A DNA stretch of 64,000 bases from Candidatus Flemingiibacterium sp. (GTDB lineage: Bacteria; Bacillota; Clostridia; Oscillospirales; CAG-272), in NCBI GenBank assembly GCA_045634005.1, contig JAZQZL010000069.1, positions 3,075 to 67,074 of the forward strand. The letters run 5' to 3'. Made by a program: the position numbers and the translations under genes. Positions 3,974 to 40,719 of the stretch are shown piece after piece (position 1 is the first letter of the stretch; each line of letters opens with the position of its first letter). The notes below the pieces were generated by a model. It had not been told where the DNA came from. It saw only the letters and a program-made list of their open reading frames with translations, and did not search any database.

Positions 3974-3995
3974 CCGTAATATATTATTTTTCGAG

Positions 3996-4454
3996 TTATT
4001 TTCGCTTCTCCCGAATGCGTGCAAAAAACTCCTGCAAAAGCGCAGACGCTTCCCTTTCGCACACACCGAAAACCATCTCCGGCTTGTGGTTGAGCGGATA
4101 GAAATTAAGGTTCAGCACGCTTCCCATAGCGCCTGCCTTTGCATCCTTTGCGCCGACCACGACTCGCTTTATACGCGAGTTGACTATCGCTCCGGCACAC
4201 ATTGTGCACGGCTCGAGGGTTACGTACAGATCGCATTTATGAAGCCGCCAGCCGCCAAGTCTTTTGCAAGCCGCATCTATAGCGAGCAGCTCTGCGTGAG
4301 CAAGCGCGTTTTTGTCGCATTCGCGACGGTTGTACGCCTCCGCGATTATCTCGCCGTCAAGCACGACGAGGGCACCCACAGGCACCTCTCCGATAGCCGC
4401 CGCCTCACCTGCAAGCTCGAGCGCGCGACGCATAAATCTTTCGTCACTCTGCAT
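3996..4454 (-). CDS. tadA: tRNA adenosine(34) deaminase
   Basis: CMP/dCMP-deaminase zinc motifs HAELLAI and PCTMCAGAI; about 150 aa. Confidence 0.9.
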   Translation of the reverse strand: MQSDERFMRRALELAGEAAAIGEVPVGALVVLDGEIIAEAYNRRECDKNALAHAELLAIDAACKRLGGWRLHKCDLYVTLEPCTMCAGAIVNSRIKRVVVGAKDAKAGAMGSVLNLNFYPLNHKPEMVFGVCEREASALLQEFFARIREKRK

Positions 4455-5709: not shown

Positions 5710-5802
5710 ATATTGTTACTCATACAAAAGCCGCGTGTGCGCAAATTAGTTTCGCGGCGTTTTTCGCCTGATTCGATTACGTGCAGCTTGGAGAAAATTA
5801 CA

Positions 5803-10444: not shown

Positions 10445-11584
10445 TTACTGTTCTTCGCCCTCGAAGTAGTCCGCAAGATCGCCAAGGCGTGCGTAGTAGA
10501 GCGCGTCCTTGCCGCGAATACCGCTTTCACCGTGCGGCTTGTCGGGATAAAGCTCACTGTTTGACCAGATCATAAAGAGCTCGCCCTTGTAGTTGATGAC
10601 GTCGTAGTAAACGATACCGTACTTGTCAACGACGGTGAATATCTCCTCGTACTTCGAAACGTCCTCGCCCTCACCGAGCATAAGTCGTATGTTGTTTCTG
10701 TCGCGGCCCATTAAATTGGGCTTAAGTCCGAATGCGGAGTATGCCATAAGCACGCGGCCGTTGTACTCAAGCATCTGCGGACGGGTTTCAACAAGAGGAA
10801 CTCTCGTTGGCGTTTCACAGAACGTCTTACCAAGATCGTGCGACACGTAATAGTTGCAGTCCTGTGCAGCGCGAAGAAGCGCATACATCTCGCCCTTCAC
10901 TATCGCTATCTGGCACTCGTAGGAGGCGATTTTCGGGATAATGCCCTGGAACTCGTATGTAACGCCGTCGGTGCACCTCCAGATGATAGGCTGCGAGCAG
11001 CCCGAGGTGATGCAGCCGTAGTACGCGCCCTCATAGAAGCAGGGTTTTGCGACGTTGATAATGTTTTCGCGACAGTCGAAATCGAGATTGAAGCCGCTCA
11101 TACCGTTCTTCGTCAGATATTCTGCAACAGCTTCCTTCGTAAGATTAACGGGCTTGGAATCTGCATCGAATTTGCACTTTATCGGATTTATCCTCGACAT
11201 CTCATTCGTATCGGGATCGAAATCGAGATAGTAATACTCGCTCGCGTTTGCAAGGAAGTATATTCTCACCTTGCCGTCAAGGAAAACCGAGCTTGCATCA
11301 ACGGGATTTATATAGGTAACGCCGTCGATTACGTCGCCGCTGTCCATAAGAACGATATTCTCCGCCTTGTGCGGCTGCATTATCGGCATCTTCATGATCA
11401 TCATCGTGCTGAACTGCTCGCCATAGCTTCGTCTGCCCGCATGATACGGCGTATAAAGCATACCGCGCTCGCCGTCAAAGCAGCTTATCGGTGCGCTCGA
11501 CGAGGTGAGATTTGCGGTGTCGCTCACGCACACTCTGTGGTCGATTATAATATGCCGCCATTCCTCGTTTGTTCTCTTTGCCAT
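10445..11584 (-). CDS. Uncharacterised Asp-box (BNR) beta-propeller / sialidase-fold protein, paralogue A
   Basis: One Asp-box SHDLGKTF (SxDxGxT[WF]). Collinear similarity to the 13313-14413 product. No signal peptide. Sits between eda and kdgK with intergenic gaps of only 1 nt (to eda) and 14 nt (to kdgK). Confidence 0.5.
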   Translation of the reverse strand: MAKRTNEEWRHIIIDHRVCVSDTANLTSSSAPISCFDGERGMLYTPYHAGRRSYGEQFSTMMIMKMPIMQPHKAENIVLMDSGDVIDGVTYINPVDASSVFLDGKVRIYFLANASEYYYLDFDPDTNEMSRINPIKCKFDADSKPVNLTKEAVAEYLTKNGMSGFNLDFDCRENIINVAKPCFYEGAYYGCITSGCSQPIIWRCTDGVTYEFQGIIPKIASYECQIAIVKGEMYALLRAAQDCNYYVSHDLGKTFCETPTRVPLVETRPQMLEYNGRVLMAYSAFGLKPNLMGRDRNNIRLMLGEGEDVSKYEEIFTVVDKYGIVYYDVINYKGELFMIWSNSELYPDKPHGESGIRGKDALYYARLGDLADYFEGEEQ

Positions 11585-13247: not shown

Positions 13248-13277
13248 TTGACAAAGCCGCGCTGCGCGTGATATAAT
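13248..13277 (+). promoter_or_regulatory. Sigma-A type promoter for paralogue B
   Basis: TTGACA (13248-13253), 18-bp spacer, TATAAT (13272-13277). Confidence 0.6.
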
Positions 13278-13312
13278 TGTATCAACAAAATAAAAAAAGG
13301 AGAATCCTTTAT

Positions 13313-14413
13313 ATGAACTACGGAATGGAAATGACCCAGATAAACGACGCTCTCACGCAAACTGCGGCTTGCGGAAGCGCGGCTGTCTACGATCAGCCAA
13401 ACGGACTTGTGTTCGTTTCGTATTTGACCGGCGTTAAGAAGCGCTACGGCGAATCCTGCGGCAAGCTTTGCCTGTCGGTATTCTCACCCTCGCAGCCTCA
13501 CAACGTACGTCACCGCGTGCTTGACACAGGTGTTGGCGCATCAAGAGGCCTTCTCTGCACCGCGATCTACCTCGTAGGCGACTCGAGAGTCCGCCTTATC
13601 TTCTCGACCACGCGTGGCGAGCTTGCAACCTACTACCGCGACTACGACTTCATCTCCGATACCGTTTCCGAGAGAAAAGAGGTATTCCTTCGCACCGAGA
13701 ACGGCGACGTTCGTCTTAACAAGCACACCTACGCCGAGTACCTCGCAGCGCACGGTCTGCCGCTCAAGGTTGCTTCGGATCCCATCATAAACAAGGTTAC
13801 AAGATACAACGGCAAGCTTTACACCGCCGTTTCCAACGACTACGAGGGCTATCCTACCCTTTGCACGATCGAGGACAACATTCTCGTTCCGTTCGCACAC
13901 TGCCCCGAGCTTATGACGTACGAGTTCCGCTACTATATGAGCGACGACGGAATCTTCGGTATGTACCGTTTCCCGCCGGATGACCACGGCACCGGTCACG
14001 CGGCATACACCGTATCGAAGGACGGCGGTAAGACCTGGAACACCACCATCTTCGAGGACGGCGTTCAGTCCCGCCCCGACATCACCGAGTACTACGGCAA
14101 GCCGCTTATCGTATATAACTACAAGAGCGACAAGTCGCGCGAGAACTTCCCGAAGATGCACAACTTCAGAAACTCGATAAAGATGGTATACGACGGAAAG
14201 GTCATCTTCGACTTCTTCTCGAAGTACGGCATCGTAGAGCACGAGCTCGTTAACGTCTACAACGACCTCTATATGGTATTCTCCAACTGTCCGCAGGCAC
14301 TCTCCACCGCAAACGGCGGCGCGTGGGTTGAAAACGGTCATCCCGTTGAGCAGGGCAAGGAGGCTATCCAGTGGGTTAAGCTCGGATATATGCTCGGTGA
14401 AGAAAACAACTGA
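13313..14413 (+). CDS. Uncharacterised Asp-box (BNR) beta-propeller / sialidase-fold protein, paralogue B
   Basis: Start refined to ATG 13313 (MNYGMEM, RBS AAAGGAG). Perfect Asp-box SKDGGKTW. Collinear with paralogue A (YGE, QPH, AEYL, TYEF, RP...EY.G, KYGIV, SN blocks). Confidence 0.5.
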   Translation: MNYGMEMTQINDALTQTAACGSAAVYDQPNGLVFVSYLTGVKKRYGESCGKLCLSVFSPSQPHNVRHRVLDTGVGASRGLLCTAIYLVGDSRVRLIFSTTRGELATYYRDYDFISDTVSERKEVFLRTENGDVRLNKHTYAEYLAAHGLPLKVASDPIINKVTRYNGKLYTAVSNDYEGYPTLCTIEDNILVPFAHCPELMTYEFRYYMSDDGIFGMYRFPPDDHGTGHAAYTVSKDGGKTWNTTIFEDGVQSRPDITEYYGKPLIVYNYKSDKSRENFPKMHNFRNSIKMVYDGKVIFDFFSKYGIVEHELVNVYNDLYMVFSNCPQALSTANGGAWVENGHPVEQGKEAIQWVKLGYMLGEENN

Positions 14414-15759: not shown

Positions 15760-16656
15760 TTACTTGATATCAAGTAGCTTCTCCGCATTTTCGCGAGCGA
15801 TTTTCTTAAAGGTAGTTTCGCTGATCTTACCCTGCTCCTTCCAGGAGATGAGCAGCGGACCGAGCGGATCCTGGAAGCCCTTACCGATAATGTCGGTGCC
15901 GTAGTAGAGTCTGTCCTCAAACTCGGAGAGGAATCTCGGGCCGTAGTTCTCGTCGCGCGCGATCGCGTTGAACGCGGTCGGGTCGGAAAGGTCGCCGTGG
16001 AGATTCGGGTACAGGCGCAGAAGCTTCGGCACTACGCCCTCCTCGTCGATAGGGCCGTCCGGCATCTTGCAGACCTGCTTGTAGTTGACCATATAGAACG
16101 CTCTCGAAGCAACTCGCTCAAGTCTGCCTATCTCGCTCCAGAATACAGGACCGTGTCCGAAGATCTGAAGATTCGGATAAGCGAGAAGCGTCCACTCAAG
16201 GAACGGAAGTCCTGCTTCGTCGTAAAGACCGAAGTCGCCGCCAATCTGTGCGGAGCCGTCGTAAACGAGCGGCAGACCGACCTTTTCGGTGCACTTGAAG
16301 AGATTCTGCACGAGCGGATCCATCATAGAAAGATTCGGCATTACCTCGCCGACGCCCTTACAGCCTGCATCCTTGTACGCCTGAAGCACATTGTCAAGCT
16401 TTGCATCGGGCGAGTTGGAAATGCAGCGAGGGTCAACGTTACAGTACGGGATAAAACGGTCGGGATGGTTTTCTGCAATCTCGATGATGTCGTCAACCGA
16501 CTGCGGCAGATAGATCTCCGCGTTTACCATCGGCAGAAGAACGCCCATATCGATCTTGCATCTGTCATAAACCTCAATAAGCTCGTCAGGTGTAGGAAGC
16601 TTAATAAAAGCCTTGGGCTTAATGCGCGCAACGTGCGCGTGAATATCTATAAACAT
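15760..16656 (-). CDS. Amidohydrolase-2 (PF04909-like) family metal-dependent hydrolase (lactonase/decarboxylase type)
   Basis: N-terminal MFIDIHAHV metal motif, about 300 aa, TIM-barrel hydrolase pattern. Confidence 0.7.
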   Translation of the reverse strand: MFIDIHAHVARIKPKAFIKLPTPDELIEVYDRCKIDMGVLLPMVNAEIYLPQSVDDIIEIAENHPDRFIPYCNVDPRCISNSPDAKLDNVLQAYKDAGCKGVGEVMPNLSMMDPLVQNLFKCTEKVGLPLVYDGSAQIGGDFGLYDEAGLPFLEWTLLAYPNLQIFGHGPVFWSEIGRLERVASRAFYMVNYKQVCKMPDGPIDEEGVVPKLLRLYPNLHGDLSDPTAFNAIARDENYGPRFLSEFEDRLYYGTDIIGKGFQDPLGPLLISWKEQGKISETTFKKIARENAEKLLDIK

Positions 16657-16677: not shown

Positions 16678-16733
16678 TAAAAACAAAACGCATCACCGCT
16701 CGGACGGTGTTACCCGTCCGAGTGGCCGATGCG
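16678..16733 (-). terminator. Strong hairpin plus T-run between the ASRT-like gene and the amidohydrolase gene (terminator or attenuator)
   Basis: Minus strand reads CGCATCGGCCACTCGGACGG-GTAACA-CCGTCCGAGCGGTGATGCG followed by TTTTGTTTTT. Only about 30 nt remain before the next start codon. Confidence 0.65.
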
Positions 16734-16741
16734 TACGTTAA

Positions 16742-17122
16742 TTATTCGGCGTAGCCGAGGGTGGTGTAGTAAGCAAGGTTGGTCTGACGGTTGTCAAGTC
16801 TGCCGTACTGTACTACGATGTTACCCGTAGATGCGAGCTTCATAGCATACTGCTCCTCGAGCGGTATGTCAACGCCGCACATATCGTTAAGGTTGTTCAT
16901 TCTGAAGCAGCGTACACGCTTTGCGCCAACATTCCACTTAATGGTGTTGCATACGTCCTTATCGGGGAAGTAAAGCGTTACGTCGATGGTTACGTCAAAA
17001 TCGTTATCGTTAACTACGATAACAGACTCGTGACCCTTAAGCTCACCTTCGCCGGGAGGCGGAAGCTCGCAGTCGGGAATGAGCCAGTTCATCTTTCCAA
17101 TTCCATTAGAAGTCAAGCTCAA
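16742..17122 (-). CDS. Sensory-rhodopsin-transducer (ASRT, PF07100-like) family protein, copy 1
   Basis: 126 aa. Collinear with Anabaena ASRT as I recall it (GHESV..N....D..I.V.LYF.DK..., R.R..N.LND, VVQ..RLD.RQ). Overlaps the upstream M24 gene by 17 nt. Confidence 0.7.
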   Translation of the reverse strand: MSLTSNGIGKMNWLIPDCELPPPGEGELKGHESVIVVNDNDFDVTIDVTLYFPDKDVCNTIKWNVGAKRVRCFRMNNLNDMCGVDIPLEEQYAMKLASTGNIVVQYGRLDNRQTNLAYYTTLGYAE

Positions 17123-18278
17123 TCAGTCCCTTCTTAAGATAATCGGTGTAGCTGTCTACGCCATTCTTGGTGATTGCGCAGCCCTTTTCCCAACGGCAGC
17201 CGAAGGTGTCGCCGGAGATGAAGGTGTCGATCTGGAAGGTCATGTTTTCCTTAAGCGGATACTCGGAGCTGGTCTCCATCCAAGGAGCCTCAACCTCGAT
17301 CATACCGGTACCGTGGCAGGGACCGTATACGAATCTTTCCTTCATACCGTTGTCAACGAAGAGCTTGTAGAAGCCCTTAGCAACGTCACTTGCCATTACG
17401 CCAGCCTTGAGCTGAGCCTCGGTCCACTCGTGAGCCTTAAGGCAGAACTCAACGATCTCGCGGCGCTCGCCCTCGAGCTTGCCCATAACAACGGGAAGAC
17501 CGATGGAGGGAGAATAACCGTCGATCTTTGCAGAGAGGTTAAGCTGAACGATATCGCCCTTACCGATTACGCGGTAGCCGGAACGGGAGATAGCGTGACG
17601 GGTGGAAGCCTCGGAGAATACGTACATAGGAAGACCCTCGTACTCTGCGCCCTCCTCGTAGATAACCTGCTGAGCAACACCAACCATTGCAAGCTCGGTA
17701 ACACCGGGCTTAAGGCGGCGGATAACCTCATCGGTAGCCTTCTCGATAATGCGGAAGCCTTCCTTCATGCAGGCAATCTCGTTTGCGGACTTGATGGAGC
17801 GAAGAGCAACCATGATGTCAGCGCAGGTGGAGATTTCAGCCTCAGGATAGCTTTCCTTAAGACCGTCGAGAATCGGGAGAGTGCACTCAACGTAGCTTCC
17901 GAGACCGATCTTGATCTTGTCGCCGGTTACGCCGAGGTTCTTGAATACATCGCGGAAGGTAGAAGCCTGAAGCTCAGGATAAGAGGGGTCTGCAGACTCT
18001 CTGAACTCGCGAAGAACGAAAATCTTGTCGAGCTTGTTTCTGTCAGCACCGAAAACAGCGGACTCGGGACCAACGAGAAGTGCAGCATCGCCGTTTGCGG
18101 AAATTGCTACGCCTGCTCTTTCGAAAAGGGGCCAGAAGCCGGAGAAGTAACGAGCGTTAGCGTAGTCGGACTCGGTGCTCACTACGAGCATTACGTCAAG
18201 ACCGCGGTCAGCTACCATCTTGGCAGCCTTCGCTACTCTCTCTCTGTATTCGTTGTCTGGGATACAAATTCTTGCCAT
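17106..18278 (-). CDS. M24 family metallohydrolase (creatinase/Xaa-Pro dipeptidase-like), copy 1
   Basis: Creatinase_N-like N-domain plus pita-bread domain (GDIVQLNLSAKIDGYSPSIG, GPCHGTG, EAPW). Paralogue of the 34030-35217 product. Confidence 0.8.
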   Translation of the reverse strand: MARICIPDNEYRERVAKAAKMVADRGLDVMLVVSTESDYANARYFSGFWPLFERAGVAISANGDAALLVGPESAVFGADRNKLDKIFVLREFRESADPSYPELQASTFRDVFKNLGVTGDKIKIGLGSYVECTLPILDGLKESYPEAEISTCADIMVALRSIKSANEIACMKEGFRIIEKATDEVIRRLKPGVTELAMVGVAQQVIYEEGAEYEGLPMYVFSEASTRHAISRSGYRVIGKGDIVQLNLSAKIDGYSPSIGLPVVMGKLEGERREIVEFCLKAHEWTEAQLKAGVMASDVAKGFYKLFVDNGMKERFVYGPCHGTGMIEVEAPWMETSSEYPLKENMTFQIDTFISGDTFGCRWEKGCAITKNGVDSYTDYLKKGLIELDF

Positions 18279-18412: not shown

Positions 18413-19861
18413 TCAGTTCGCGCCTGACATTTTAAGCTTCGCAAGACCGCCCTCTGCTGTTTCCTTATACTGATGCGAGATGTCAAGTCCCGTCTGCTTC
18501 ATAACCGCGATGACCTTGTCAAGCGATATCTTTCTCGAATCGGACAAAAAGCTTGCAAGGCTGACTGCGTTGATAGCTCTCATCGCCGCGACCGCGTTAC
18601 GCTCGATGCAGGGTATCTGAACGAGTCCGCAAATGGGGTCACAGGTAAGTCCGAGGTGATGCTCTATGGCTATCTCCGCCGCATATTCGATCTTATCGAG
18701 CGAGAGCCCAAAAAGCTCTGCAAGAGCTGCCGCTGCCATAGCGCACGCGCTGCCGATCTCTGCCTGACAGCCGCATTCGCTGCCGGAGATGGACGCGTTG
18801 GTTTTTATAAGATTTCCGACGAGTCCGCCTGCCGCAAGCGCGTGAACGATCTCCGTGTCAGAGTATCCGCGCTTTTGCTGCTGATAGTAAAGTGCCGCCG
18901 GCACAACGCCGGACGCTCCACACGTCGGCGCGGTAACAATACGCTCTGCGCACGCATTCTGCTCGGCAACGGCAAACGCAAACGCACAAACCATTCGGTT
19001 TTCTCTCGTTTCCGCAGACTCATCAATATGCTGTGAGCTGTAAAGCTGCTTTGCACGCTTTTGCACCTCAAGTCCACCGGGGAGTATTCCCGTATCTGCA
19101 AGACCGTCGGCGATACTGCGCTTCATCTCGTGCCAGACGTACGTCAGATACTCGATTATCTCTCTTCCCTCAACCGCCTCTACGTACTGCCAAAGACGGA
19201 GATTTTCCCTCGTGCAGCAATCGGCGATGCTCTCAAAGGAAGCAACTCTGTAAATATCGTCGCCCTCGCCGAACTCCACGCCGTCAACAACGACCTTGCC
19301 GCCGCCGACGCTTAAGACGTGACTCCGGCCGTACTCCTTGCCGTTTTTGTATGCAAACAGCTCCATTGTGTTGGGGTGAATGAGAGGAATATCGCTCTTG
19401 TCAAACACTATCTCGCACGGTACGGGTGCAAGCGTTTTTTTGATAACCCTGTCCGTTCCGTGACCGACACCGGTCTTTGCAAGCGAGCCGTAAAGCACCG
19501 CCTTGAATGCATCTGCCTCGGGATACTTCTCGCGGAACATCTCGCAGGCGCGCTCCGGACCGATCGTGTGCGAGCTGGACGGACCGCATCCGACACGGTA
19601 TATACCTGTGAGAGATTTCATACCCGTAGCGGGAACCGCCTTTTTCGGCTCATTTTTATCGTCCGAGAGGAAATAGTCAACGGACACGCCGAAGATTTTT
19701 GAAAGTTTCAGAATGTTCTCGGTCGACGGCAAAGCAAGTCCCGTTTCCCACTTGGATACGGCACGGTTGCTCACGCCGAGCATTGAGCCGAGCTTTTGCT
19801 GTGTAATGCCGTTTTCGCGGCGTAAAGCCGCAAATTTTGCGGCGAAATTTTTCTCTGTCAT
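18413..19861 (-). CDS. XRE-family HTH domain fused to iron-sulfur L-serine dehydratase (single chain, beta+alpha)
   Basis: Residues 1-65 form a classic HTH_3 (LRRENGITQQKLGSMLGVSNRAVSKWETG). The rest carries GCGPSSSHTIGP and the Cys ligand motifs CGASGV, SECGCQAEIGSA and CDPICGLVQIPCIERNA of SdaA. Confidence 0.8.
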   Translation of the reverse strand: MTEKNFAAKFAALRRENGITQQKLGSMLGVSNRAVSKWETGLALPSTENILKLSKIFGVSVDYFLSDDKNEPKKAVPATGMKSLTGIYRVGCGPSSSHTIGPERACEMFREKYPEADAFKAVLYGSLAKTGVGHGTDRVIKKTLAPVPCEIVFDKSDIPLIHPNTMELFAYKNGKEYGRSHVLSVGGGKVVVDGVEFGEGDDIYRVASFESIADCCTRENLRLWQYVEAVEGREIIEYLTYVWHEMKRSIADGLADTGILPGGLEVQKRAKQLYSSQHIDESAETRENRMVCAFAFAVAEQNACAERIVTAPTCGASGVVPAALYYQQQKRGYSDTEIVHALAAGGLVGNLIKTNASISGSECGCQAEIGSACAMAAAALAELFGLSLDKIEYAAEIAIEHHLGLTCDPICGLVQIPCIERNAVAAMRAINAVSLASFLSDSRKISLDKVIAVMKQTGLDISHQYKETAEGGLAKLKMSGAN

Positions 19862-22576: not shown

Positions 22577-24529
22577 ATGAAGATCATCACCGCTCATCGC
22601 GAAGAAACCGCAGTATACGCGGCAGAAGAGCTCAAAAAATATCTTGATATGATGGATCCTGCGCTTGGCACAGAGATCGTTTATACAGATGCACCAAATA
22701 AAGACGGCGGTATCGTTCTCGCGCTTATGAGCGAGTACGGACTCGAAACGCCCGAAATAACGGACCCCGTAACCGACGATATTCTCTACATCGACGTTAA
22801 GGACGGCAAGGGACTTATCGCAGGCTCAAACATTCGAAGCATACTCCTCTCGGTGTACCGCTACTTAACAGAAGCCGGTTGCCGCTTTATCCGTCCCGGT
22901 GCGAACGGCGAATATATCCCCACTCGCGATATGAGCAGCTTCTCGTGTAAGTACCGTCACGCGGCGGCGTACCCGTTCCGCGGCGAGTGCATAGAGGGCG
23001 CTGTAAGCTTCGAGCACGTTCGCGACACCATCATCTGGTCGCCGAAGGTCGGTATGAATATGTTCATGATGGAGCAGGTTGTTCCTTACAACTATATCAG
23101 CCGCTGGTACAAGCATCTGTCGAACACCGTGCTCGAGGACGAGAAAGTTTCCTTTGAGCAGGTAGGCGAGTTTGTAAAAGAGCTTGACGCGCTCGTCAAG
23201 AAGTGCGGTCTTCAGCATCACGCGCTCGGTCACGGCTATCTTCTTGAGCCGTACGGCGTTCACTACATCGACCGCTCGGTTGAATACCACCTCTCCGACG
23301 AGGCTATCGCAGATACCGCACTCGTCAAGGGGCAGCGCGGACTTTTCAGCCGTTCTCCTAACTTCACACAGCTTTGCTATTCCAAGAAGGAAATCAGAAA
23401 GAAGGCTATCGACTGGCTGGTTTCTTACGTTGAACAAAAGCCGTTCATCGACTTCTTGCACGTTTGGCTCGCGGACTCGATCAACAATCAGTGCGAGTGC
23501 GAATCCTGTCAGCCTCACCGCGTGTCCGACCTCTACGTTAAGATGCTCAACGAGCTCGACGAGGCGCTCACGGCAAAGGGACTTGACACCAAGATCGTGT
23601 TCATTCTCTATGTTGACACCAACTGGCCGCCTCTTTATGAAAAGATCAACAACCCCGACCGTTTCATAATGCTTACCGCAATCGGCGGTCGCGACTACGC
23701 GAAGCCGTATGACTCTACTCCCTATGAGGGCGAGATTCCCGAATACATAAAGAACGACTTTAAGCTCTCTACCTCCTTCCCGATGATCTTAAAGCTCATC
23801 GACGAGTGGAAGCCTGCGTTCGACGGCAGAAAGTTCGTTTACGAATACCATATGTACTCGCATCACTACGACGATCCCGGCTACGTACGCCTTTCAGAGC
23901 TCTTTATGCAGGATTGCAAAAATATCGGCCAGTTCGGCTTCGACGGCATCATCAGCGACCAGACACAGCGCTCGTTCTTCCCGAACGGACTTGCTATGTC
24001 CTCGTACGCTGCAGGCATGTACGACACCAAGACCGACTTCGACGCATTCAGCGAGGATTACTTCAAAGCCGCGTACGGCGCGGATTACAAGCTCGCAAAG
24101 GATTATCTCTACGAGATCTCCCGTCTTATGAGTCCCGACGTGCTTCAGATAAAGATGAGCATCGTCGACGTTGACGACGATCTCGGAAGCAAGGTTCGTA
24201 CTCCCGGACGTCCTTGGATCGGAAGTCCGAAGATGCAGGGATATTTCCGCGATGCGATGAAGCTTGCCGAGGACTTTGAGGCAGTTGCAAAGGCGCATAT
24301 GAACGGTGACAACGCAACCCACAATCACTCGTGGATGCTTCTCTACCACCACACGACCTACGTTCGTCACTATGCCGACACGCTTCTCGCGCGCTCGCTT
24401 GAGGATATGGACGGAGCACAGGAAAAGTACCGCGAGCTTATCGACACAATGTCGAGAATCGAGCTCGAGATCGCGCCCGAGTTTGACCTCCACCTCTTTG
24501 ATAATTCCATCAAGAGAAAGATTCAGTAA
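22577..24529 (+). CDS. Glycoside-hydrolase-like protein, DUF4838-like (family assignment tentative), tandem paralogue 1
   Basis: 650 aa. GH20b/GH67-N-like start (ETAVYAAEELKKYLDMM) and NNQCECESC (CxCxxC) motif. Highly similar to the next gene. No signal peptide. Confidence 0.45.
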   Translation: MKIITAHREETAVYAAEELKKYLDMMDPALGTEIVYTDAPNKDGGIVLALMSEYGLETPEITDPVTDDILYIDVKDGKGLIAGSNIRSILLSVYRYLTEAGCRFIRPGANGEYIPTRDMSSFSCKYRHAAAYPFRGECIEGAVSFEHVRDTIIWSPKVGMNMFMMEQVVPYNYISRWYKHLSNTVLEDEKVSFEQVGEFVKELDALVKKCGLQHHALGHGYLLEPYGVHYIDRSVEYHLSDEAIADTALVKGQRGLFSRSPNFTQLCYSKKEIRKKAIDWLVSYVEQKPFIDFLHVWLADSINNQCECESCQPHRVSDLYVKMLNELDEALTAKGLDTKIVFILYVDTNWPPLYEKINNPDRFIMLTAIGGRDYAKPYDSTPYEGEIPEYIKNDFKLSTSFPMILKLIDEWKPAFDGRKFVYEYHMYSHHYDDPGYVRLSELFMQDCKNIGQFGFDGIISDQTQRSFFPNGLAMSSYAAGMYDTKTDFDAFSEDYFKAAYGADYKLAKDYLYEISRLMSPDVLQIKMSIVDVDDDLGSKVRTPGRPWIGSPKMQGYFRDAMKLAEDFEAVAKAHMNGDNATHNHSWMLLYHHTTYVRHYADTLLARSLEDMDGAQEKYRELIDTMSRIELEIAPEFDLHLFDNSIKRKIQ

Positions 24530-24602: not shown

Positions 24603-24622
24603 AATGGCGCGTATATATTTTT
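24578..24622 (+). terminator. Hairpin plus T-run after paralogue 1, overlapping the paralogue 2 promoter
   Basis: ATATACGCGCCA (24578-24589) / TGGCGCGTATAT (24605-24616), 15-nt loop, then ATTTTT. Confidence 0.55.
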
Positions 24623-24656
24623 GCGCCAAACACCGTCCACTAAAGGAGATGCTACG

Positions 24657-26618
24657 ATGAAGATACTCACAAATCACCGCGAGGAAACCGTAGTTTACGC
24701 GGCTGAAGAACTCAAAAAATATCTCGATATGATGTGCCCGGGATTTTGCACGGGCATCGAATACGCCGAAAAGGCAAAACGCACCGACGGCGCGATAGTT
24801 CTCGCGCTTATGGGCGAGCTCGGTCTTGACACACACGAGATGAAGGACCCGATGACCGACGATATTCTCTACATCGACGTCGAAAACGGCTCCGGTGTCA
24901 TCGCCGGCGGCAACATCCGAAGCATACTCCTTTCCGTATACCGTTATCTCAACAAGGCAGGCTGCCGCTTCATCCGTCCCGGCAAGGACGGTGAGATAAT
25001 TTCCTCGCGCGATATGGCCGCATTCTCCTTAAAATACCGCCACGTGCCGTCCTACCCGTTCCGCGGCGAGTGCATCGAGGGTGCCGTAACAGTCGAGCAG
25101 GTCATAGACTCGGTTATCTGGTCGCCGAAGGTCGGTATGAATATGTTTATGATCCAGCAGGTCGTTCCGTATAACCTTATGAGCCGTTGGTACAAGCATC
25201 TGTCGAACACGCGCCTTGAGGACGAAAATGTTCCCTTTGAGGAATACTGCAAGTTCACCGAGGATATTGAGAAGGCGATAAAGAAGGTCGGACTTCAGTA
25301 TCACGGTCCCGGACACGGATACCTCTTTGAGCCTTGGGGTATTCACTACCTCGACCGCACTATCGAGTATAATTTCTCCGATGAGGCTATCGCCGCGAGT
25401 GCGCTCGTTAACGGCAAACGCGGACTTTTCAGCCGCTCACCTAACTTCACCCAGCTTTGCTACTCAAGTCCCGACGTCAGAAAGAAGGTCGTCGACTGGC
25501 TTGTTGCGTTTGTTGAGAAAAAGCCGTTCCTCGATTTTCTCCACATCTGGCTTGCCGATTCGATCAACAATCAGTGCGAATGTGAAAACTGTGTAAAGCA
25601 CCGTGTGTCCGACCTTTACGTTACACTCCTTAACGAGCTTGACGCGGCGCTCGCAGCCAAGGGACTTGACACCAAGATCGTGTTCATTCTCTACACCGAA
25701 ACCAACTGGCCGCCGCTTTATGCGAAGCTTAATAATCCCAATCGCTTCATTATGCTCACAGCAATCGGCGGCAGAAACTTCAAGGACACCTACGATCCCC
25801 GAGAATACGACGGTCCCACACCGCCGTACGAGCGCAACAACTACACGATAACCACCGACTTCCCGCTTATCCGCCGATTTATCGACGAGTGGAAGCCCGC
25901 GTTCGACGGACCGAAGTTCTCGTATGAGTATCATCTCTATGCCGCACATTACAACGACCCAAGCTACGTCAACTTCGCAAAGGTGTTCCCGCGCGACGCC
26001 AAGACTATCGAGAAGTACGGCTTCAGTGGAATTATGAACTGTATGACACAGCGCTGTGCGTTCCCGACGGCACTTCCCATCGCCGTGTACTCCGAAACGA
26101 TGCTCGACAACTCCATCGAGTTCGAATCGTTCGAGGACGACTACTATAAAAGCGCATTCGGCACCGATTATACCGTCGCCAAGGATTACCTCTACTCGCT
26201 GTCGGAGCTTATGAATCTTGAAAACTTAAGCGTGCGCCTTGAGATTGCCGTCAACAACGATGAGGAAGGCTCGTCCGAAACCATTCGCCATAAGCCCTGG
26301 GCGGAGGATGAGAAAACGCGCGACGACTTCCGCGCCGCGATAAAGCTTGCCGCAACATTTGAATCGGTGGCAAAATCCTACGCCGAGAGCGAAAAGCACC
26401 CTACAGTTGCACGCTCGTGGGAGCTTCTCTACTACCACACCTTCTACGTCCGCCATCTTGCAGAGGTATATCTGACTCACGGGCAGGGCGATATAGAAGC
26501 AACCCGCAAAAGATATGCAGAAATGATAGACGCACTCTCCGAAATGGAGCCGAAGATCGCCGACGCGTTCGACCTGCACATATTCGACAGCTCCACAAAG
26601 AGAAAGCTCGAGATATAA
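24657..26618 (+). CDS. Glycoside-hydrolase-like protein, DUF4838-like (tentative), tandem paralogue 2
   Basis: Start refined to ATG 24657 (MKILTNHREETVVYAAEELKKYLDMM, RBS AAAGGAG). Collinear with paralogue 1, including NNQCECENC. Confidence 0.45.
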   Translation: MKILTNHREETVVYAAEELKKYLDMMCPGFCTGIEYAEKAKRTDGAIVLALMGELGLDTHEMKDPMTDDILYIDVENGSGVIAGGNIRSILLSVYRYLNKAGCRFIRPGKDGEIISSRDMAAFSLKYRHVPSYPFRGECIEGAVTVEQVIDSVIWSPKVGMNMFMIQQVVPYNLMSRWYKHLSNTRLEDENVPFEEYCKFTEDIEKAIKKVGLQYHGPGHGYLFEPWGIHYLDRTIEYNFSDEAIAASALVNGKRGLFSRSPNFTQLCYSSPDVRKKVVDWLVAFVEKKPFLDFLHIWLADSINNQCECENCVKHRVSDLYVTLLNELDAALAAKGLDTKIVFILYTETNWPPLYAKLNNPNRFIMLTAIGGRNFKDTYDPREYDGPTPPYERNNYTITTDFPLIRRFIDEWKPAFDGPKFSYEYHLYAAHYNDPSYVNFAKVFPRDAKTIEKYGFSGIMNCMTQRCAFPTALPIAVYSETMLDNSIEFESFEDDYYKSAFGTDYTVAKDYLYSLSELMNLENLSVRLEIAVNNDEEGSSETIRHKPWAEDEKTRDDFRAAIKLAATFESVAKSYAESEKHPTVARSWELLYYHTFYVRHLAEVYLTHGQGDIEATRKRYAEMIDALSEMEPKIADAFDLHIFDSSTKRKLEI

Positions 26619-33968: not shown

Positions 33969-33986
33969 TTGAGAAAAACAGCAAAA

Positions 33987-34020
33987 GGACAGAGGATTTA
34001 CTCCTCTGTCCTTCTTTTAT
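33987..34020. terminator. Bidirectional terminator (gdhA / M24 copy 2)
   Basis: GGACAGAGGA-N5-TCCTCTGTCC followed by TTCTTTTATTT. Confidence 0.8.
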
Positions 34021-34029: not shown

Positions 34030-35217
34030 TCAGCAATCGATCTCAAAGAGCTTTCTCGGGTAGTTGGTGAGATTTTCTGCGTAACCGTTCTTTACGCAGA
34101 CAACGTCCTCCATACGAAGACCTGTCTTGGTCTTTGCAGAGCCGAGGAAGATGTCAACGCAGAAGGTCATATTTTCCTCAAGCAAATAATCCGAGGTCGT
34201 TTCGATCCACGGAGCCTCGCCCTCCATAGTGCCGTTACCGTGGCAAGGGCCGTAAAGGAGCCAATCGCCATATCCCATTTTCGTTACGTTTTCGATATGG
34301 AACTTCGCAACGTCGCACGCAGGGGTGCCTGCCTTAAGCATATCGATAACGTCCGCCTGTGCCTTGTAGCCGACCTCGATGAGCTCGCGCTGCTCGTCAG
34401 TCGCCTTGCCGAAAACTGCGGGGCGTCCGATGCTCGAAGCGTAGCCGTCAACTCTCGCGCCGATCTGAAGGAAGGTCATATCGCCCTTCTTTATCTGCTT
34501 GTTTCTCGGACGGCTGATAGCCTGGTTTGAGCCTTCACCGGTGAGCACCCACAGAGGGTACGATTCTCTTTCCGCGCCAAGCTCGTGCATCTTGCCAAGC
34601 GCAAGACCGACCACCTGCTGCTCGGTCATACCGACGCGGATATTCTCGAGCACGTAGTCGAAGGTCTTTGCGGTGATCTCTGCCGCCGCTCTCATACAGG
34701 CAAGCTCGTTCTCGGTCTTTCTCATACGGATGGTGTTTACGATAGCGTCAGCCTTTTCGATCTTCACGTCGCCGTAAACGGAAAGCGACTCGCGAAGTGC
34801 CTCGTAAACGCCGATTGTCATAAGCGGAAGTCCCGCAACACCGAAGCGCTTAACCGACGACTTGCCGAGAAGTCTTTCGAAAACGGTGTTGAATGTGTCG
34901 AGCTTCTTGCCGGGATACTCCGGCTCGGACGACTCTCTGAATGCCTTCAGAAGGCAAATTTCGTCGATCATCGAGCGGTCAGATGCATAGGTGTAGCTCT
35001 CGGGACCGATGAGGAGAAGCGGATCGCCCTCTCTCGGGATAAGCACGCCCGCGGTTTCGAACGAGGGCCAATATGCCGAGAAATAGCGCACGAACTGCGG
35101 CTCGGCCTCGTTGCCGTATGCGAGAATAAGGTCGTAGCCCTCCGCCTTCATAGCAGCCTGAACCTTTTTGACACGCTCCTTGTATTCTTCTCTCGGAATA
35201 GATGGGATGTTAAGCAT
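34030..35217 (-). CDS. M24 family metallohydrolase (creatinase/Xaa-Pro dipeptidase-like), copy 2
   Basis: Start refined to ATG 35215-35217 (MLNIPSIP). Shares RYFS..WP.FE.AGV, GPES, FRES..P.YP, YGPCHG.G and EAPW.ET.S.Y.L.ENMTF with copy 1. Confidence 0.8.
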   Translation of the reverse strand: MLNIPSIPREEYKERVKKVQAAMKAEGYDLILAYGNEAEPQFVRYFSAYWPSFETAGVLIPREGDPLLLIGPESYTYASDRSMIDEICLLKAFRESSEPEYPGKKLDTFNTVFERLLGKSSVKRFGVAGLPLMTIGVYEALRESLSVYGDVKIEKADAIVNTIRMRKTENELACMRAAAEITAKTFDYVLENIRVGMTEQQVVGLALGKMHELGAERESYPLWVLTGEGSNQAISRPRNKQIKKGDMTFLQIGARVDGYASSIGRPAVFGKATDEQRELIEVGYKAQADVIDMLKAGTPACDVAKFHIENVTKMGYGDWLLYGPCHGNGTMEGEAPWIETTSDYLLEENMTFCVDIFLGSAKTKTGLRMEDVVCVKNGYAENLTNYPRKLFEIDC

Positions 35218-35222
35218 AATAT

Positions 35223-36260
35223 TTATTCCTTTCCACACAGCCAATCGGCCGGATTTTTTACTAACATTGTTTTAATATCGTTTTCGCTGATACCCTCGTC
35301 CTCCATCATCGGAACGATGTTGGAGAGCACGTGGTCGTAACCCCAACCGCCGTATGCGTGAAGGAGATTTTTTAGGCATACGTCGCAGGACAAAAGGATC
35401 TGTCCCACGTAGCCGTCGTCGATCATCTTCTTGAGAAGCGCAACTCTGTCCGTGTCGTGAACGAACAGTCCGTAGCCCGAATTGCGGACCTCTCGGCGAA
35501 TGTAGTACTCCTTGCCGAAGTTGTCAAGCTCAACGTAAACGCCTTTTTTAAGAAGCTCGTATATGTACTCGCTGCGGTTTTCAACGTCAATGTGGCTGAT
35601 GCAGATCCTATCGGGTGCAACTCCTTCACCGAGAAGGATATCCGCCGCCTCTATTCCGTTGACTGTCCACGGGTTTATGTGTACGTTGATCGCAACGCCC
35701 GTCGCCTTCTGCGCTATCGCCGCCGCTCGAAGCACCTTGCGCTCCTTATCGTCGAAAATCTCGCTTATGCCGATTTCGCCGATATATCCGGCGCATACGC
35801 CGTCTATACCCTCGTCAAGCTCGCATATCATAAGCTCGGCTACCTCGGCGTCCGTCATCTCGGCAAGCTCTTTCGGATGCGTTTCTCCGACGTAGAAGCC
35901 CGTGCCCATTATAATGTTGAGCCCGGTCTTTTCGGATATACGTGCAAGCGCCGCGGGATCTCTGCCGATACCCGGAAGCGATGCGTCAACCACCGTGTTG
36001 CCGCCTGCATTTTTGAAAAACTCAAGCTCGCGTACGGCAAGCTCCTCGCTGTCGAGAAGCAGATTATCCTTCAGCGCATAACAGTCGCGGCTCAAAATAC
36101 CGAGATTCCACATCTCAACGGGCTGTGTCGCCGGATCGTCTATGCCCTTTATGGGCAACGCCTGATAAAATGCCGTAAGGTCAAGTAATACGTGCTCGTG
36201 TGTCGTCGTGGTTTTAAGCTCGTCACGCGACAGCACCTTGCATACGCTCTTTACGCTCAT
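35223..36260 (-). CDS. Phosphotriesterase-family (PTE/PHP, amidohydrolase superfamily) protein, lactonase-like
   Basis: Start refined to ATG 36258-36260 (MSVKSVCK). TTTHEHVLLDL (HxH metal motif) and the later HID / VELD blocks are typical of PTE homology proteins. Confidence 0.75.
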   Translation of the reverse strand: MSVKSVCKVLSRDELKTTTTHEHVLLDLTAFYQALPIKGIDDPATQPVEMWNLGILSRDCYALKDNLLLDSEELAVRELEFFKNAGGNTVVDASLPGIGRDPAALARISEKTGLNIIMGTGFYVGETHPKELAEMTDAEVAELMICELDEGIDGVCAGYIGEIGISEIFDDKERKVLRAAAIAQKATGVAINVHINPWTVNGIEAADILLGEGVAPDRICISHIDVENRSEYIYELLKKGVYVELDNFGKEYYIRREVRNSGYGLFVHDTDRVALLKKMIDDGYVGQILLSCDVCLKNLLHAYGGWGYDHVLSNIVPMMEDEGISENDIKTMLVKNPADWLCGKE

Positions 36261-36270
36261 ATCTGCCTCC

Positions 36271-36651
36271 TTATTCACTCTGAGCCATAAGCGCCATATA
36301 AGCCATATTCGACTGCTGTACGTCAAGTCTGCCGTACTGTACTATAACGCCGATATCGCTTTTTATTTCCATTGAATACTGAACTCCGACGCCAATCTCA
36401 AGTCCGCCGAGCACTTCCTTTTCGTCCGTCTTGAAGCATCTGATGCGCTTTGCCGGAACTGTGTACGGAATGTTCTCGACGGGCTCACGGTCCTCAAAGT
36501 AAATACTGATAAGAACGTGCGCGTCCTCGCTGTTGGTGTTGAGTATCATTACGCTTTCGTGTCCGATATACTCGGCATCGGGATCGGGCTTTGGCGACGG
36601 ACGGTATCCGTCAACTATGTACCACTGTTTCTTTCCGCTCAATACAGGCAC
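36271..36651 (-). CDS. Sensory-rhodopsin-transducer (ASRT, PF07100-like) family protein, copy 2
   Basis: 126 aa. IGHESVMILNTNSEDAHVLISIYFEDREP, KRIRCFK and VIVQYGRLDVQQSNMAY are collinear with copy 1 and ASRT. Confidence 0.7.
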   Translation of the reverse strand: MPVLSGKKQWYIVDGYRPSPKPDPDAEYIGHESVMILNTNSEDAHVLISIYFEDREPVENIPYTVPAKRIRCFKTDEKEVLGGLEIGVGVQYSMEIKSDIGVIVQYGRLDVQQSNMAYMALMAQSE

Positions 36652-36746
36652 CTTCCTTTCTATATTTTCATTTTACCTGTTTTTAGTATAGGATTCTATG
36701 GGATTTCACGGACTGAAATTAGTAAAACAAGACATCGGCAAACCGA

Positions 36747-36775
36747 TTGACATAAGGGATAATAAATGGTATACT
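36747..36775 (+). promoter_or_regulatory. Promoter of the divergent AraC regulator
   Basis: TTGACA, 17 bp, TATACT (TGg upstream). Confidence 0.6.
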
Positions 36776-36797
36776 AAACACAGAGAGGAGGGATACT

Positions 36798-37703
36798 GTG
36801 AATAAGGACGTACCGCTCATAAAAAAAGAAGACCTTTTCAGCGAAAACGGTAGCGTGCATATACACCTTTCAAACGAATACAAGGACTACGTCGGAATCT
36901 TGCACAAGCACAAATTCATCGAGATCGTATATATAGTTTCGGGCAAAGCGCGCCACGTTATAAACGAGAATGAATATTTCGTAAAAAAGGGCGACGTTTC
37001 CGTCATAAACCCGTCCGAAGCGCACGCGTTTTACGCGGACACGGAATGTGACGAGGAGTTTGTCGCATATGACCTTATGTTCACTCCCGACTTTATCGAC
37101 CGCGCCTGCCTCGAAGGCGACGGCTTCTCCGAACTTTCCGACTCATTTATGTTCTATTCCCTCTTTCCCGACGAAAAGGAGTTCAAGAAGCGATTCAATC
37201 TCGTCCCGAGCTGCGGCTTCGTGCTTGAAACGGTTTTCGAGCGGATATATCACGAATACAAGGGTAAGAAAAACGGATACATAAACCTTATCCGTGTTTA
37301 CAGTGCAGAAATTATTATAAAGCTGCTACGCCGTATCGGGGACCTTAAAAAGAGCCATATTTCGGAGTCGCAGCGCCAGATCGTAGCAAAGGTGATCGAA
37401 TACGTTGAAAACAATTACAGCATAAAAATAAACACAGAGGAAATAGCCTCTAAAATGTTTTTCAACAAGGACTACATATCAAAGCTGTTTAAAAGCGAAA
37501 CGGGACAGTCGATCTCCGAATTTGTCCGTGAGATACGCTTGAAGGAAGCCTGCCGACAGATCGCGTCAACTGACAGAAACATCACCGAGATCGCGTACGA
37601 CTGCGGCTTCGGCGATATTAAAACCTTCTATTCGCTATTCAAAAAATACGTCGGCTGTACGCCAAAGGTGTACCGCGACGGTATATCGGAAGAGAAAAAC
37701 TAA
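36798..37703 (+). CDS. AraC family transcriptional regulator (GTG start), divergent from the ASRT/PTE/M24 operon
   Basis: Cupin N-domain (HKHKFIEIVYIVSGKA) and C-terminal HTH pair (TEEIASKMFFNKDYISKLFKSETG, ITEIAYDCGFGDIKTFYSLFKKYVG). Confidence 0.85.
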   Translation: MNKDVPLIKKEDLFSENGSVHIHLSNEYKDYVGILHKHKFIEIVYIVSGKARHVINENEYFVKKGDVSVINPSEAHAFYADTECDEEFVAYDLMFTPDFIDRACLEGDGFSELSDSFMFYSLFPDEKEFKKRFNLVPSCGFVLETVFERIYHEYKGKKNGYINLIRVYSAEIIIKLLRRIGDLKKSHISESQRQIVAKVIEYVENNYSIKINTEEIASKMFFNKDYISKLFKSETGQSISEFVREIRLKEACRQIASTDRNITEIAYDCGFGDIKTFYSLFKKYVGCTPKVYRDGISEEKN

Positions 37704-39872: not shown

Positions 39873-40460
39873 ATGGACTTTTACAAAATATCACGCACGC
39901 TTCGCCGTCCGCTTGCAGTTATACTCGCGCTGTTTATGCTCGCCGCGCTCGTTTCCTGCAGCATAGAGGACATTTCCGACGGTCTTGAGCTTGCGGGCGA
40001 TATAATCGACATCGTCGGCGAGGTTGAATCCCCCACGTCCGACGCGCCCGACATAACAGACAACGTCACACCCGACACCGAAGCTAACACGGACGAGAAC
40101 GTCACACCAACGCTCGACGAGAACGGATACTATTATTCAAAAGACGACGTCGCACTATACATACACACATATGGCAAGCTTCCACAAAATTTCATCACCA
40201 AGAGTGAAGCCGAGGATCTCGGTTGGGAAGGTGGCTCTGTGGAACGCTATCTTGACGGCGCGGCGATCGGCGGCGACAAATTCGGCAACCGCGAGGGACT
40301 GCTTCCGAGGGCTGACGGTCGAGTTTACTACGAGTGTGACATCGACACGAACGGGCAAAGCTCGCGCGGCGCAAAGCGCATAGTATTCTCGAACGACGGG
40401 CTTATCTATTACACCGACGACCACTATGAAAGCTTCACGCTTTTGTACGGCGAACAGTGA
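39873..40460 (+). CDS. Barnase-family (N1/T1 microbial) extracellular ribonuclease with a lipoprotein signal peptide and a long acidic linker
   Basis: Lipobox LVSCS. The C-terminal 110 aa are collinear with barnase (YIHTYGKLPQNFITKSEAEDLGW, GGDKFGNREGLLP, YYECDI, RIVFSNDGLIYYTDDHYESF). Confidence 0.85.
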   Translation: MDFYKISRTLRRPLAVILALFMLAALVSCSIEDISDGLELAGDIIDIVGEVESPTSDAPDITDNVTPDTEANTDENVTPTLDENGYYYSKDDVALYIHTYGKLPQNFITKSEAEDLGWEGGSVERYLDGAAIGGDKFGNREGLLPRADGRVYYECDIDTNGQSSRGAKRIVFSNDGLIYYTDDHYESFTLLYGEQ

Positions 40461-40470
40461 GGTGCAGAAT

Positions 40471-40719
40471 ATGAAAATCATACCTCTTGACGCATCGAAC
40501 TTCACAGACAAAAAAAGCTCGCACGAATATCTTGCAAACGCACTGCGCTTCCCTGCTTACTACGGGTGCAACCTCGACGCACTCGCAGATATGCTTTCCG
40601 AATTGCCGCGCGACGTTGGCGTTATATTTCACGCGACAGCGGATTACGGCGCCTATTCCGAGAGCATCATTGAAACGTTTATCGAGGTTCTCGGCGATGC
40701 TCGCACTATGATAATATAA
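40471..40719 (+). CDS. Barstar-family ribonuclease inhibitor
   Basis: Start refined to ATG 40471 (MKIIPLD, RBS GAGGTG). FPAYYGCNLDALADML matches barstar LPEYYGENLDALWDCL. Confidence 0.8.
   Translation: MKIIPLDASNFTDKKSSHEYLANALRFPAYYGCNLDALADMLSELPRDVGVIFHATADYGAYSESIIETFIEVLGDARTMII

Follow-up and report, generated by a model that had tools for sequence, protein, structure and literature searches.

A predicted two-hydrolase catabolic operon with an ASRT-family protein in Candidatus Flemingiibacterium sp. and its paralogous counterpart

In a 64,000-nucleotide (nt) stretch of a Candidatus Flemingiibacterium sp. genome (Bacillota, Clostridia; GenBank assembly GCA_045634005.1, contig JAZQZL010000069.1, positions 3,075 to 67,074 of the forward strand), hereafter the window, genes for an ASRT-family protein, a phosphotriesterase-family enzyme (PTE) and an M24-fold protein (M24) formed an operon divergent from the gene of an AraC-family regulator. 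We propose that this locus is an AraC-activated cytoplasmic catabolic module in which two hydrolases act on a carbohydrate-linked small molecule, with the ASRT-family protein as the ligand-binding partner of M24; we assign this reading a probability of about one half. The PTE retained its metal ligands, the M24 protein had lost part of its own, the genes recurred together in other genomes, and M24 and ASRT were co-inherited. The module is an AraC-type catabolic operon assembled from known folds, widespread and uncharacterised, and the type of system is itself familiar.

Results

The operon genes lay head to tail on the minus strand in the order ASRT, PTE and M24 (Table 1). They were separated by 10 nt (ggaggcagat) and 5 nt (atatt), exactly the gaps reported in a first-pass annotation of this DNA, and its open reading frames and family calls (ASRT, PTE with an HEH motif, M24) were borne out by Pfam. 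The terminator at 34015–33983 marked the end of the operon and was bidirectional, being shared with a convergent gdh gene. The length of 126 amino acids (aa) given for the ASRT protein in that annotation holds for the longest open reading frame, which starts at GTG 36651. The product itself is probably 123 aa long and starts at TTG 36642, because close homologues are 123 aa with the N-terminus MSGKK and this codon is preceded, at a distance of 8 nt, by a GGAAGG ribosome-binding site. An exact look-up of the ASRT protein found no identical sequence on record. The best genomic matches were metagenome-assembled genomes that carry the labels Eubacteriales, Oscillospiraceae and Christensenellaceae and come from the guts of humans, ruminants and other animals.

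The previously noted divergent AraC regulator was confirmed at 36798–37703 on the plus strand. Its product combined the C-terminal double helix-turn-helix (HTH_18, 79.8 bits) with the N-terminal cupin (AraC_binding, 45.2 bits) of this family. The AraC-side promoter was near consensus (TTGACA-17-TATACT, plus strand, 36747–36775). The operon-side promoter had a −10 element (TAAAAT, 36675–36670) and no −35 element, the conserved TCCCATAGA at 36703–36695 standing in its place. Across nine aligned orthologous intergenic regions, the CCATAG and TATAAT blocks were conserved. This predicted layout, a conserved −10 with TCCCATAGA replacing the −35, is usual for activator-dependent promoters. AraC orthologues (phmmer, >200 bits) adjoined the PTE–M24 pair in approximately 30 of 80 species loci, and the operon is probably switched on by the divergent AraC protein.

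The M24 protein of the operon (copy 2) carried a Creatinase_N (PF01321) and a Peptidase_M24 (PF00557) domain. PF00557 scored 129 and 88.5 bits for this protein and a second M24 protein of the window (copy 1), which places both in the pita-bread domain family. The five dinuclear-metal ligands of Pyrococcus furiosus prolidase (1pv9) are D, D, H, E and E. The corresponding positions were Q251, S262, H326, D355 and E370 in copy 2 and N, S, H, D and E in copy 1, so that neither copy had the ligand set of an M24 metallopeptidase and neither can be an ordinary M24 metallo-enzyme. The prolidase catalytic His (in the 'lpHg' motif, upstream of the first Asp) aligned to an invariant Ile-Ser-Arg at 234–236. 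Searching 1.84 billion representative proteins returned 91 clusters at E ≤ 1e-30. The xxHDE pattern was common to the nearest approximately 50 full-length clusters (clustered at 50% identity), and canonical DDHEE prolidases appeared only below approximately 130 bits. Neighbour-joining placed the two paralogues of the window in sister clades within this ligand-deficient radiation, in agreement with the first-pass proposal that they are specifically related. Residues R44, Y45, E54, R94, E216, S235, R236, Y259, H326, E332, E334, E339, D355, R368 and E370 were invariant across both clades. Since so many polar residues are invariant, the pattern argues for a conserved active site and against a pseudo-enzyme. 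The M24 residues 327–340 (approximately 34198–34239), with the sequence GNGTMEGEAPWIET beside H326, formed the most conserved block of the M24 clade and the sole low-confidence stretch of the otherwise confident structural model of copy 2; this may be a mobile active-site loop.

No close relative of the M24 protein was found among solved structures. A family profile scored highest with prolidases (182 bits), followed by creatinase (1chm, 103 bits) and structures of the ectoine hydrolase DoeA (77 bits). The AlphaFold2 model of copy 2 (pLDDT 86) gave TM-scores of 0.74–0.82 with prolidases, 0.80–0.82 with creatinases and within about 0.75–0.82 with DoeA, and a fold search with this model gave no clear nearest relative among prolidase, creatinase and DoeA (0.75–0.82 for all). 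Among NCBIfam models, the M24 proteins scored far below all cut-offs of the peptidase and other equivalogs. The creatinase model gave no match, and the profile score against 1chm was lower than that against prolidases, which speaks against orthology to creatine amidinohydrolases. The ectoine hydrolase model TIGR02993 scored 68.8 and 48 bits for the two copies, against a cut-off of 613. Because of these equivalog scores, the public name of the homologues, 'aminopeptidase P family protein', is probably wrong. Prolidase and aminopeptidase P (M24B; 2zsg, 1pv9) were the best sequence and fold matches and shared the domain architecture. In contrast to them, the window proteins had other residues in place of both Asp ligands, of one Glu ligand and of the catalytic His, and their genes were kept in operons with non-peptidase genes. 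Having lost the catalytic His as well as the two Asp ligands, the M24 proteins are predicted not to be peptidases; their clade is creatinase-like and uncharacterised.

The PTE matched PF02126 with 214.8 bits (E = 2e-63), and its HEH motif lay in TTTHEHVLLD. The best solved-structure match was 9efa (phosphotriesterase-related protein, E = 5e-53), which we take to be the sponge PTER structure of PMC12873775. PTER acts as an amidohydrolase on N-acetyltaurine (PMC11374699, PMC12873775). Its substrate-binding residues are Arg209, Arg238 and Tyr268, and the residue roles given for it (PMC12873775) were mapped onto the alignment of the PTE with 9efa. The PTE kept all six metal ligands (H, H, E, H, H, D), as expected of a member of the phosphotriesterase family, together with the oxyanion Tyr and a PTER-type helical insertion after strand 1. 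PTER, with which the bacterial proteins Php/YhfV, Rsp3690 and Pmi1525 are grouped, is the closest known system to the PTE, and the Glu-bridged binuclear site is one of the shared features. In contrast, the sulfonate- and taurine-binding Arg209 and Arg238 of PTER were replaced by Pro and Val and the catalytic His305 by Cys, a pattern that does not fit an N-acetyltaurine hydrolase. The PTE was also far below the cut-offs of the NCBIfam equivalogs for Php (158 against 486 bits), OPH (89 against 500 bits) and phospho-furanose lactonase (84 against 630 bits). Since the metal ligands were kept and the substrate-binding residues of PTER replaced, the PTE is predicted to be catalytically competent, as a binuclear hydrolase with the PTER/PHP architecture but a substrate other than that of PTER. 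The earlier description of the PTE as lactonase-like found no specific support; the nearest characterised relative, PTER, is an amidase, and nothing in the sequence specifically favours a lactonase over an amidase.

Both ASRT proteins belonged to PF07100 (117.5 bits, E = 4e-34, for copy 2 and 99.9 bits for copy 1; cut-off 25), and the match spanned profile positions 2–117 of 119. The best solved-structure match of copy 2 was Anabaena ASRT (2ii7, E = 4.5e-19), and the matches listed in a protein search with its sequence were all relatives of at least 80% identity. For ASRT proteins, a role as sugar-binding sensors encoded in sugar operons has been predicted (de Souza, Iyer and Aravind 2009, PMC2739507). 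In their strand-2 signature, SHEshChhN, the His and Cys line the pocket, which in TM1070 holds 1,2-ethanediol in contact with the conserved His (PMC2739507). The window proteins read GHESVMILN and GHESVIVVN in this strand, keeping the His, Glu and Asn and replacing the Cys by Met or Ile. M24-linked ASRT proteins shared the invariant elements G-K..W, GHES, N, QYGRLD, Q and N. Like the stand-alone proteins Anabaena ASRT (2ii7) and Thermotoga TM1070 (1nc7), those of the window were single domains of approximately 125 aa in PF07100, with the conserved Trp, the His of the HE motif, the turn Asn and a carbohydrate-related neighbourhood. They differed from them in the substitution of the pocket Cys and in their neighbours: neither window copy adjoined a sensory rhodopsin gene, the genes alongside being PTE, M24 and AraC. 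M24, creatininase and amidohydrolase partners are not mentioned in the 2009 survey of ASRT contexts, nor are the M24-like, PTE and creatininase-family partners of the window type among the contexts listed there (PMC2739507). Literature searches for ASRT in gene clusters with creatininase, aminopeptidase P, creatinase or AraC found nothing relevant, and a search on TM1070 returned only a weak lectin fold comparison.

The module recurred widely. One genome per GTDB species was scanned with an alignment of five M24 sequences, which gave at least 580 loci. The best 80 were all of the copy-2 type (64–90% identity), and 52 of these had enough flanking sequence. In these 52 loci, PTE adjoined M24 in 48 and an AraC gene was nearby in 44, a protein of about 260 aa (here U260) was encoded in 27, and ASRT was present in 12. 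The full triad with both ASRT and PTE occurred in 10/52 loci, and ASRT directly preceded M24 without PTE in another two. Loci L091 and L092 reproduced the exact arrangement of the window, with AraC divergent from ASRT, PTE and M24, as did five similar places. Absence of the triad elsewhere would have spoken against the first-pass interpretation; with these counts it stands on this point. A relative with an 87% identical M24 protein had no ASRT gene, and its AraC gene was divergent from three U260 genes followed by GH3, PTE, a 307-aa protein gene and M24.

Copy-1-type loci were collected in a metagenome scan, the best 80 loci of which were of this type only; 39 had enough flanking sequence. A creatininase-family gene (PF02633) was present in 32/39 and ASRT in 25/39, with both partners (M24–ASRT–creatininase) in 20/39. 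DUF4432 was found in 11/39, an Amidohydro_2-like gene in 2/39 and PTE in none. The creatininase-family partner scored only 29 bits against true creatininase (1j2t), and the window itself held no creatininase-family gene. The stable pairs are thus PTE–M24 in the copy-2 type (48/52) and M24–creatininase in the copy-1 type (32/39). ASRT is facultative and not the constant accessory it had been taken for. Modules of both types lay within 10 kb of each other in L034, L071, L086 and L087.

Where present, the ASRT gene was almost always directly beside M24 or separated from it by PTE only, and in copy-1-type loci the two genes commonly overlapped by a few bases. Pairwise identities of M24 and ASRT were correlated (r = 0.92 over 58 non-redundant pairs; 0.88 within type), and divergence between the types was similar for M24 and ASRT (39% and 37% identity). 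Owing to this correlation and similar divergence, the data fit duplication and inheritance of the M24–ASRT pair as a unit; shared species history also adds to the correlation.

The second M24–ASRT pair of the window, predicted at a distance of approximately 16 kb, was located 15.7 kb away, also on the minus strand, with the start of its ASRT gene overlapping the 3' end of its M24 gene. The M24 copies were 39% identical (E = 4e-91), the ASRT copies 37% (E = 3e-31), and the sequence blocks quoted for M24 in the first-pass annotation were found in both. The M24 paralogues scored 268–276 bits against each other and 99 bits against the best solved prolidase, and they are thus closer to each other than to generic prolidases, as had been supposed. 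At the DNA level, the copies shared one 111-bp stretch at 76% identity and one 23-mer; a recent segmental duplication was ruled out by this confinement. Since the proteins are 39% and 37% identical and DNA similarity is almost absent, the two M24–ASRT copies are predicted to be ancient paralogues, which agrees with the earlier view that the recurrence reflects selection and not a recent duplication.

The hydrolase partners also differed in family, as previously stated: pairwise comparison detected no sequence similarity between the PTE and the Amidohydro_2-like protein of copy 1. The match of the latter to Amidohydro_2 was marginal (PF04909, 26.5 bits against a cut-off of 26.4, C-terminal third only). 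The usual partner in copy-1-type loci is the creatininase family. No solved-structure match was found for this protein by sequence, and its single-sequence AlphaFold2 model (pLDDT 46) was unusable for fold assignment. Amidohydro_2 was confined to few lineages, namely the two loci above and the closest relatives of window copy 1. In these relatives (M24 92–93% identical), AraC is divergent from M24, ASRT, creatininase and Amidohydro_2, with Amidohydro_2 as the last gene. Loci L088, L173 and L174 carry a creatininase-family gene where the window has a hairpin (16679–16732). Both the creatininase-family gene and the AraC gene next to the operon have apparently been lost from window copy 1.

Table 1. 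Coordinates of the features discussed, in window positions unless a locus is named
Feature	Position	Strand	Basis or remark
ASRT-family gene (copy 2)	36271..36642	-	123 aa from TTG 36642; longest open reading frame from GTG 36651, 126 aa
PTE/PHP-family binuclear-metal hydrolase, PTER type, 345 aa (predicted)	35223..36260	-	PF02126
M24-fold (pita-bread) protein with Creatinase_N domain, 395 aa, without dinuclear metal site	34030..35217	-	PF01321 and PF00557
Intrinsic terminator	33983..34015	-	14-pair stem followed by T-tract
AraC-family regulator with cupin-type ligand domain, divergent from operon	36798..37703	+	Pfam HTH_18, HTH_AraC, AraC_binding
Divergent control region	36643..36797	.	AraC promoter (+ strand) and activator-type operon promoter (predicted)
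M24-fold paralogue (copy 1), 390 aa, ligand positions N, S, H, D, E	17106..18278	-	Pfam, pairwise comparison, tree
ASRT paralogue (copy 1)	16742..17122	-	PF07100, E = 1e-28; 37% identical to copy 2
Hairpin and U-tract between copy-1 ASRT and Amidohydro_2-like gene	16679..16732	-	-38.9 kcal/mol, z = -5.9
Amidohydro_2-like protein, 298 aa, N-terminal HxH motif	15760..16656	-	PF04909, marginal
Neighbour open reading frames without Pfam match	L039 5642-7786; L088 6549-7883; L002 9066-9989; L144 1972-3447; L146 3458-4852

Discussion

The module would belong to a hydrolase-only family located in carbohydrate-utilisation loci of gut and rumen Clostridia. Its first enzyme would be a PTER/PHP-type binuclear-metal hydrolase of the amidohydrolase superfamily with an intact catalytic apparatus; in the sister (copy-1) module, the metal-dependent step would fall to the creatininase-family or Amidohydro_2-like protein. 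The second enzyme, M24, would be a C–N hydrolase comparable to creatinase or ectoine hydrolase, metal-poor or metal-free. We infer that the PTE and M24 act sequentially on one small molecule, one step being a ring opening or deacylation and the other the cleavage of the resulting amide, amidine or ureide, in either order. Two sequential C–N or C–O hydrolyses, the general idea of the first-pass annotation, are plausible. The ASRT protein would be an optional, small-molecule-binding beta-sandwich, inherited with the M24-type gene, that binds substrate or product and assists or modulates the M24 enzyme.

Several points weigh against this reading. The M24 activity it calls for, without the two Asp ligands, is postulated by analogy with creatinase, and we know of no characterised member of the M24 clade. 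Partner hydrolases change fold between loci (PTE, creatininase family, Amidohydro_2), and the modules could have different substrates and no shared logic. ASRT cannot be essential to the chemistry, because it is absent from most copy-2-type loci. The link to carbohydrates comes from variable neighbours and not from operon members. Across the loci examined, no transporter, kinase or dehydrogenase was fixed to the module, and since the same is true of a substrate, the pathway cannot be reconstructed. The case for AraC control consists of gene position and promoter shape.

The neighbourhood of the module was carbohydrate-related. Variable neighbours included GH3, GH78 rhamnosidase, a GHL6/GH42-like protein, sugar ABC permeases, LacI, DUF4432, an IU_nuc_hydro-like protein, lyxose isomerase, a sodium:solute symporter, PfkB with KDPG aldolase, a heparinase II/III-like lyase and recurrent proteins without Pfam match. 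The window, with many glycosidase genes of its own, contained GH29, GH51, two DUF4838-like genes, PfkB, KDPG aldolase and four further AraC genes. Knowing the substrate would close a gap in the catabolism of carbohydrates or nitrogen in the gut, the module lying inside glycan-utilisation loci. It is also abundant, with at least 580 loci in species-representative genomes and thousands of protein clusters, and it is very probably a mistake that hundreds of genomes of Clostridia from gut and rumen label members of the M24 clade as 'aminopeptidase P family protein'.

The most interesting aspect of the module is that it gives ASRT a testable biochemical partner. For ASRT outside Anabaena, only a generic 'sugar sensor' role was predicted in 2009, and the tight, co-inherited link makes the M24 clade a concrete candidate partner. 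A more specific proposal, which we regard as tentative and rather unlikely, is that ASRT of the M24-linked clade is a dedicated partner (a subunit, or a substrate-delivery or gating factor) of unrecognised ligand-deficient pita-bread hydrolases, and that the pair, after duplication as a unit, took on different ring-opening or deacylating hydrolases (PTE, creatininase family, Amidohydro_2). If true, this would be the first biochemical role of ASRT outside Anabaena and a new non-peptidase M24 activity in gut Clostridia.

The nearest mechanistic analogies to the module are DoeA/DoeB and creatininase/creatinase; tests of orthology gave a negative answer for both. Ectoine-degradation logic would have M24 open a cyclic amidine or imide to an N-acyl amine, which a PTER-like enzyme (or, in copy-1-type loci, a creatininase-family one) would then deacylate, the reverse of the order proposed in the first-pass annotation. 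DoeA/EutD with DoeB/EutE combines a non-peptidase M24-fold C–N hydrolase with a deacylase, as the proposed module would, and M24 aligned over its full length to TIGR02993 (E = 4.5e-19, residues 8–391). PTER, the nearest characterised relative of the PTE, is an N-acetyl amidohydrolase, and some creatininase-family members are deformylases. However, the TIGR02993 score was 68.8 bits against 613, the profile score with DoeA structures only 77 bits, and the deacylase fold, host and habitat differ. The substrate-binding residues of PTER are not kept in the PTE, and ectoine is unlikely as a gut substrate. We consider this scheme unlikely.

A different role for ASRT, as a catalyst and not a sensor, is quite unlikely. 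ASRT would then interconvert, for example, anomers or isomers of a sugar, in the way of the mutarotases that are an optional part of sugar operons. It is optional in both locus types and has the invariant polar residues GHES, N, QYGRLD, Q and N. In copy-1-type loci, it and DUF4432, which we take to have a mutarotase-like fold, appeared to replace each other: DUF4432 was present in 9/14 loci without ASRT and in 2/25 with ASRT, counts that are not independent because several contigs, among them DUF4432-only ones, are near-identical. The 1,2-ethanediol in the TM1070 pocket touches the conserved His (PMC2739507). On the other side, L005, L097, L127 and L129 hold both DUF4432 and ASRT, and DUF4432 had no solved-structure match. 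We know of no catalytic activity ever shown for the ASRT family.

A pathway of the creatinine/creatine type, in which a creatininase-like enzyme opens a lactam and a metal-free M24 enzyme frees urea or an equivalent, with PTE and Amidohydro_2 as fold-swapped substitutes, is very unlikely. Creatinase is itself metal-free. Like creatinase (1chm/7yto), the M24 protein has Creatinase_N and a pita-bread domain lacking the dinuclear metal ligands (TM approximately 0.8; 0.80–0.82 to creatinases), and copy-1-type M24 is usually paired with a PF02633 gene (32/39 loci), as creatinase is with creatininase (1j2t). Yet similarity was low on both sides: the M24 profile gave 103 bits with 1chm and 182 with prolidases, and the creatininase-family partner 29 bits with 1j2t. 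True creatininase/creatinase orthology was ruled out by these scores. The window lacks a creatininase-family gene, its M24 copies being paired with a PTE or an Amidohydro_2-like gene, and the surrounding genes relate to sugars and not to sarcosine or urea metabolism.

Ordinary peptide catabolism, with M24 a prolidase or aminopeptidase P and its neighbours coincidental, would suit the public name of the homologues and the prolidases as best sequence and structural matches. It is highly improbable: both Asp ligands, one Glu ligand (now Asp) and the catalytic His (now an invariant Ser-Arg) differ clade-wide, NCBIfam peptidase models scored far below their cut-offs, and the genes stay linked to those for PTE, ASRT and creatininase-family proteins across loci. 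Detoxification of organophosphates or other xenobiotics by a phosphotriesterase and an OPAA-like prolidase is scarcely credible, for although both folds include known organophosphate hydrolases and the PTE matched PF02126, the OPH model scored 89 bits against a cut-off of 500, M24 lacks the metal site needed for OPAA chemistry, and the module is widespread in anaerobic gut commensals beside glycosidase genes. Chance adjacency of the module genes was ruled out by the locus counts and the M24/ASRT identity correlation and, like the prolidase and organophosphate readings, is disfavoured.

Other genes at the module loci and in the window

U260 proteins (approximately 260 aa, MKLRDKFWLWGH..., with DDF, W.W, NFG and HTN motifs) were encoded in one to three tandem copies beside PTE–M24 in L001–L003 (positions 3931–6339) and in 27 of the 52 copy-2-type loci, for instance L030, L031, L035 and L059, and were absent from the window. 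No Pfam or solved-structure match was found for them, apart from a weak GH85 match of one member (E = 6e-4); they may be a new glycosidase-like family. Further neighbours without Pfam match were a 714-aa protein in 12 loci, a 444-aa protein directly upstream of M24 in L088 and L089, a 307-aa protein between PTE and M24, and proteins of 491 and 464 aa.

Relatives with M24 proteins 92–93% identical to copy 1 also had GC-rich hairpins between the genes of the operon. The gene immediately upstream of copy-1 M24, in the same orientation, encoded a 482-aa fusion of an XRE-type HTH_3 domain with a complete L-serine ammonia-lyase (18413–19861, minus strand; TIGR00720, 373 bits against a cut-off of 345). 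Regulator–enzyme fusions of this type are unusual.

Two paralogues of 378–379 aa without Pfam match (10445–11584, minus strand; 13277–14413, plus strand) flanked PfkB, KDPG aldolase and AraC genes; they seem to be unknown components of a cluster for the use of sugar acids. A tandem pair of paralogues, 650 and 665 aa long (22577–24529 and 24621–26618, plus strand) followed an AraC gene beside a GH29 fucosidase; one had a weak DUF4838 match (29 bits) and the other no Pfam match. Just past the GH51 arabinofuranosidase, at 39873–40719 on the plus strand, a barnase-type secreted ribonuclease gene (PF00545) was followed by an overlapping gene for a barstar inhibitor (PF01337).

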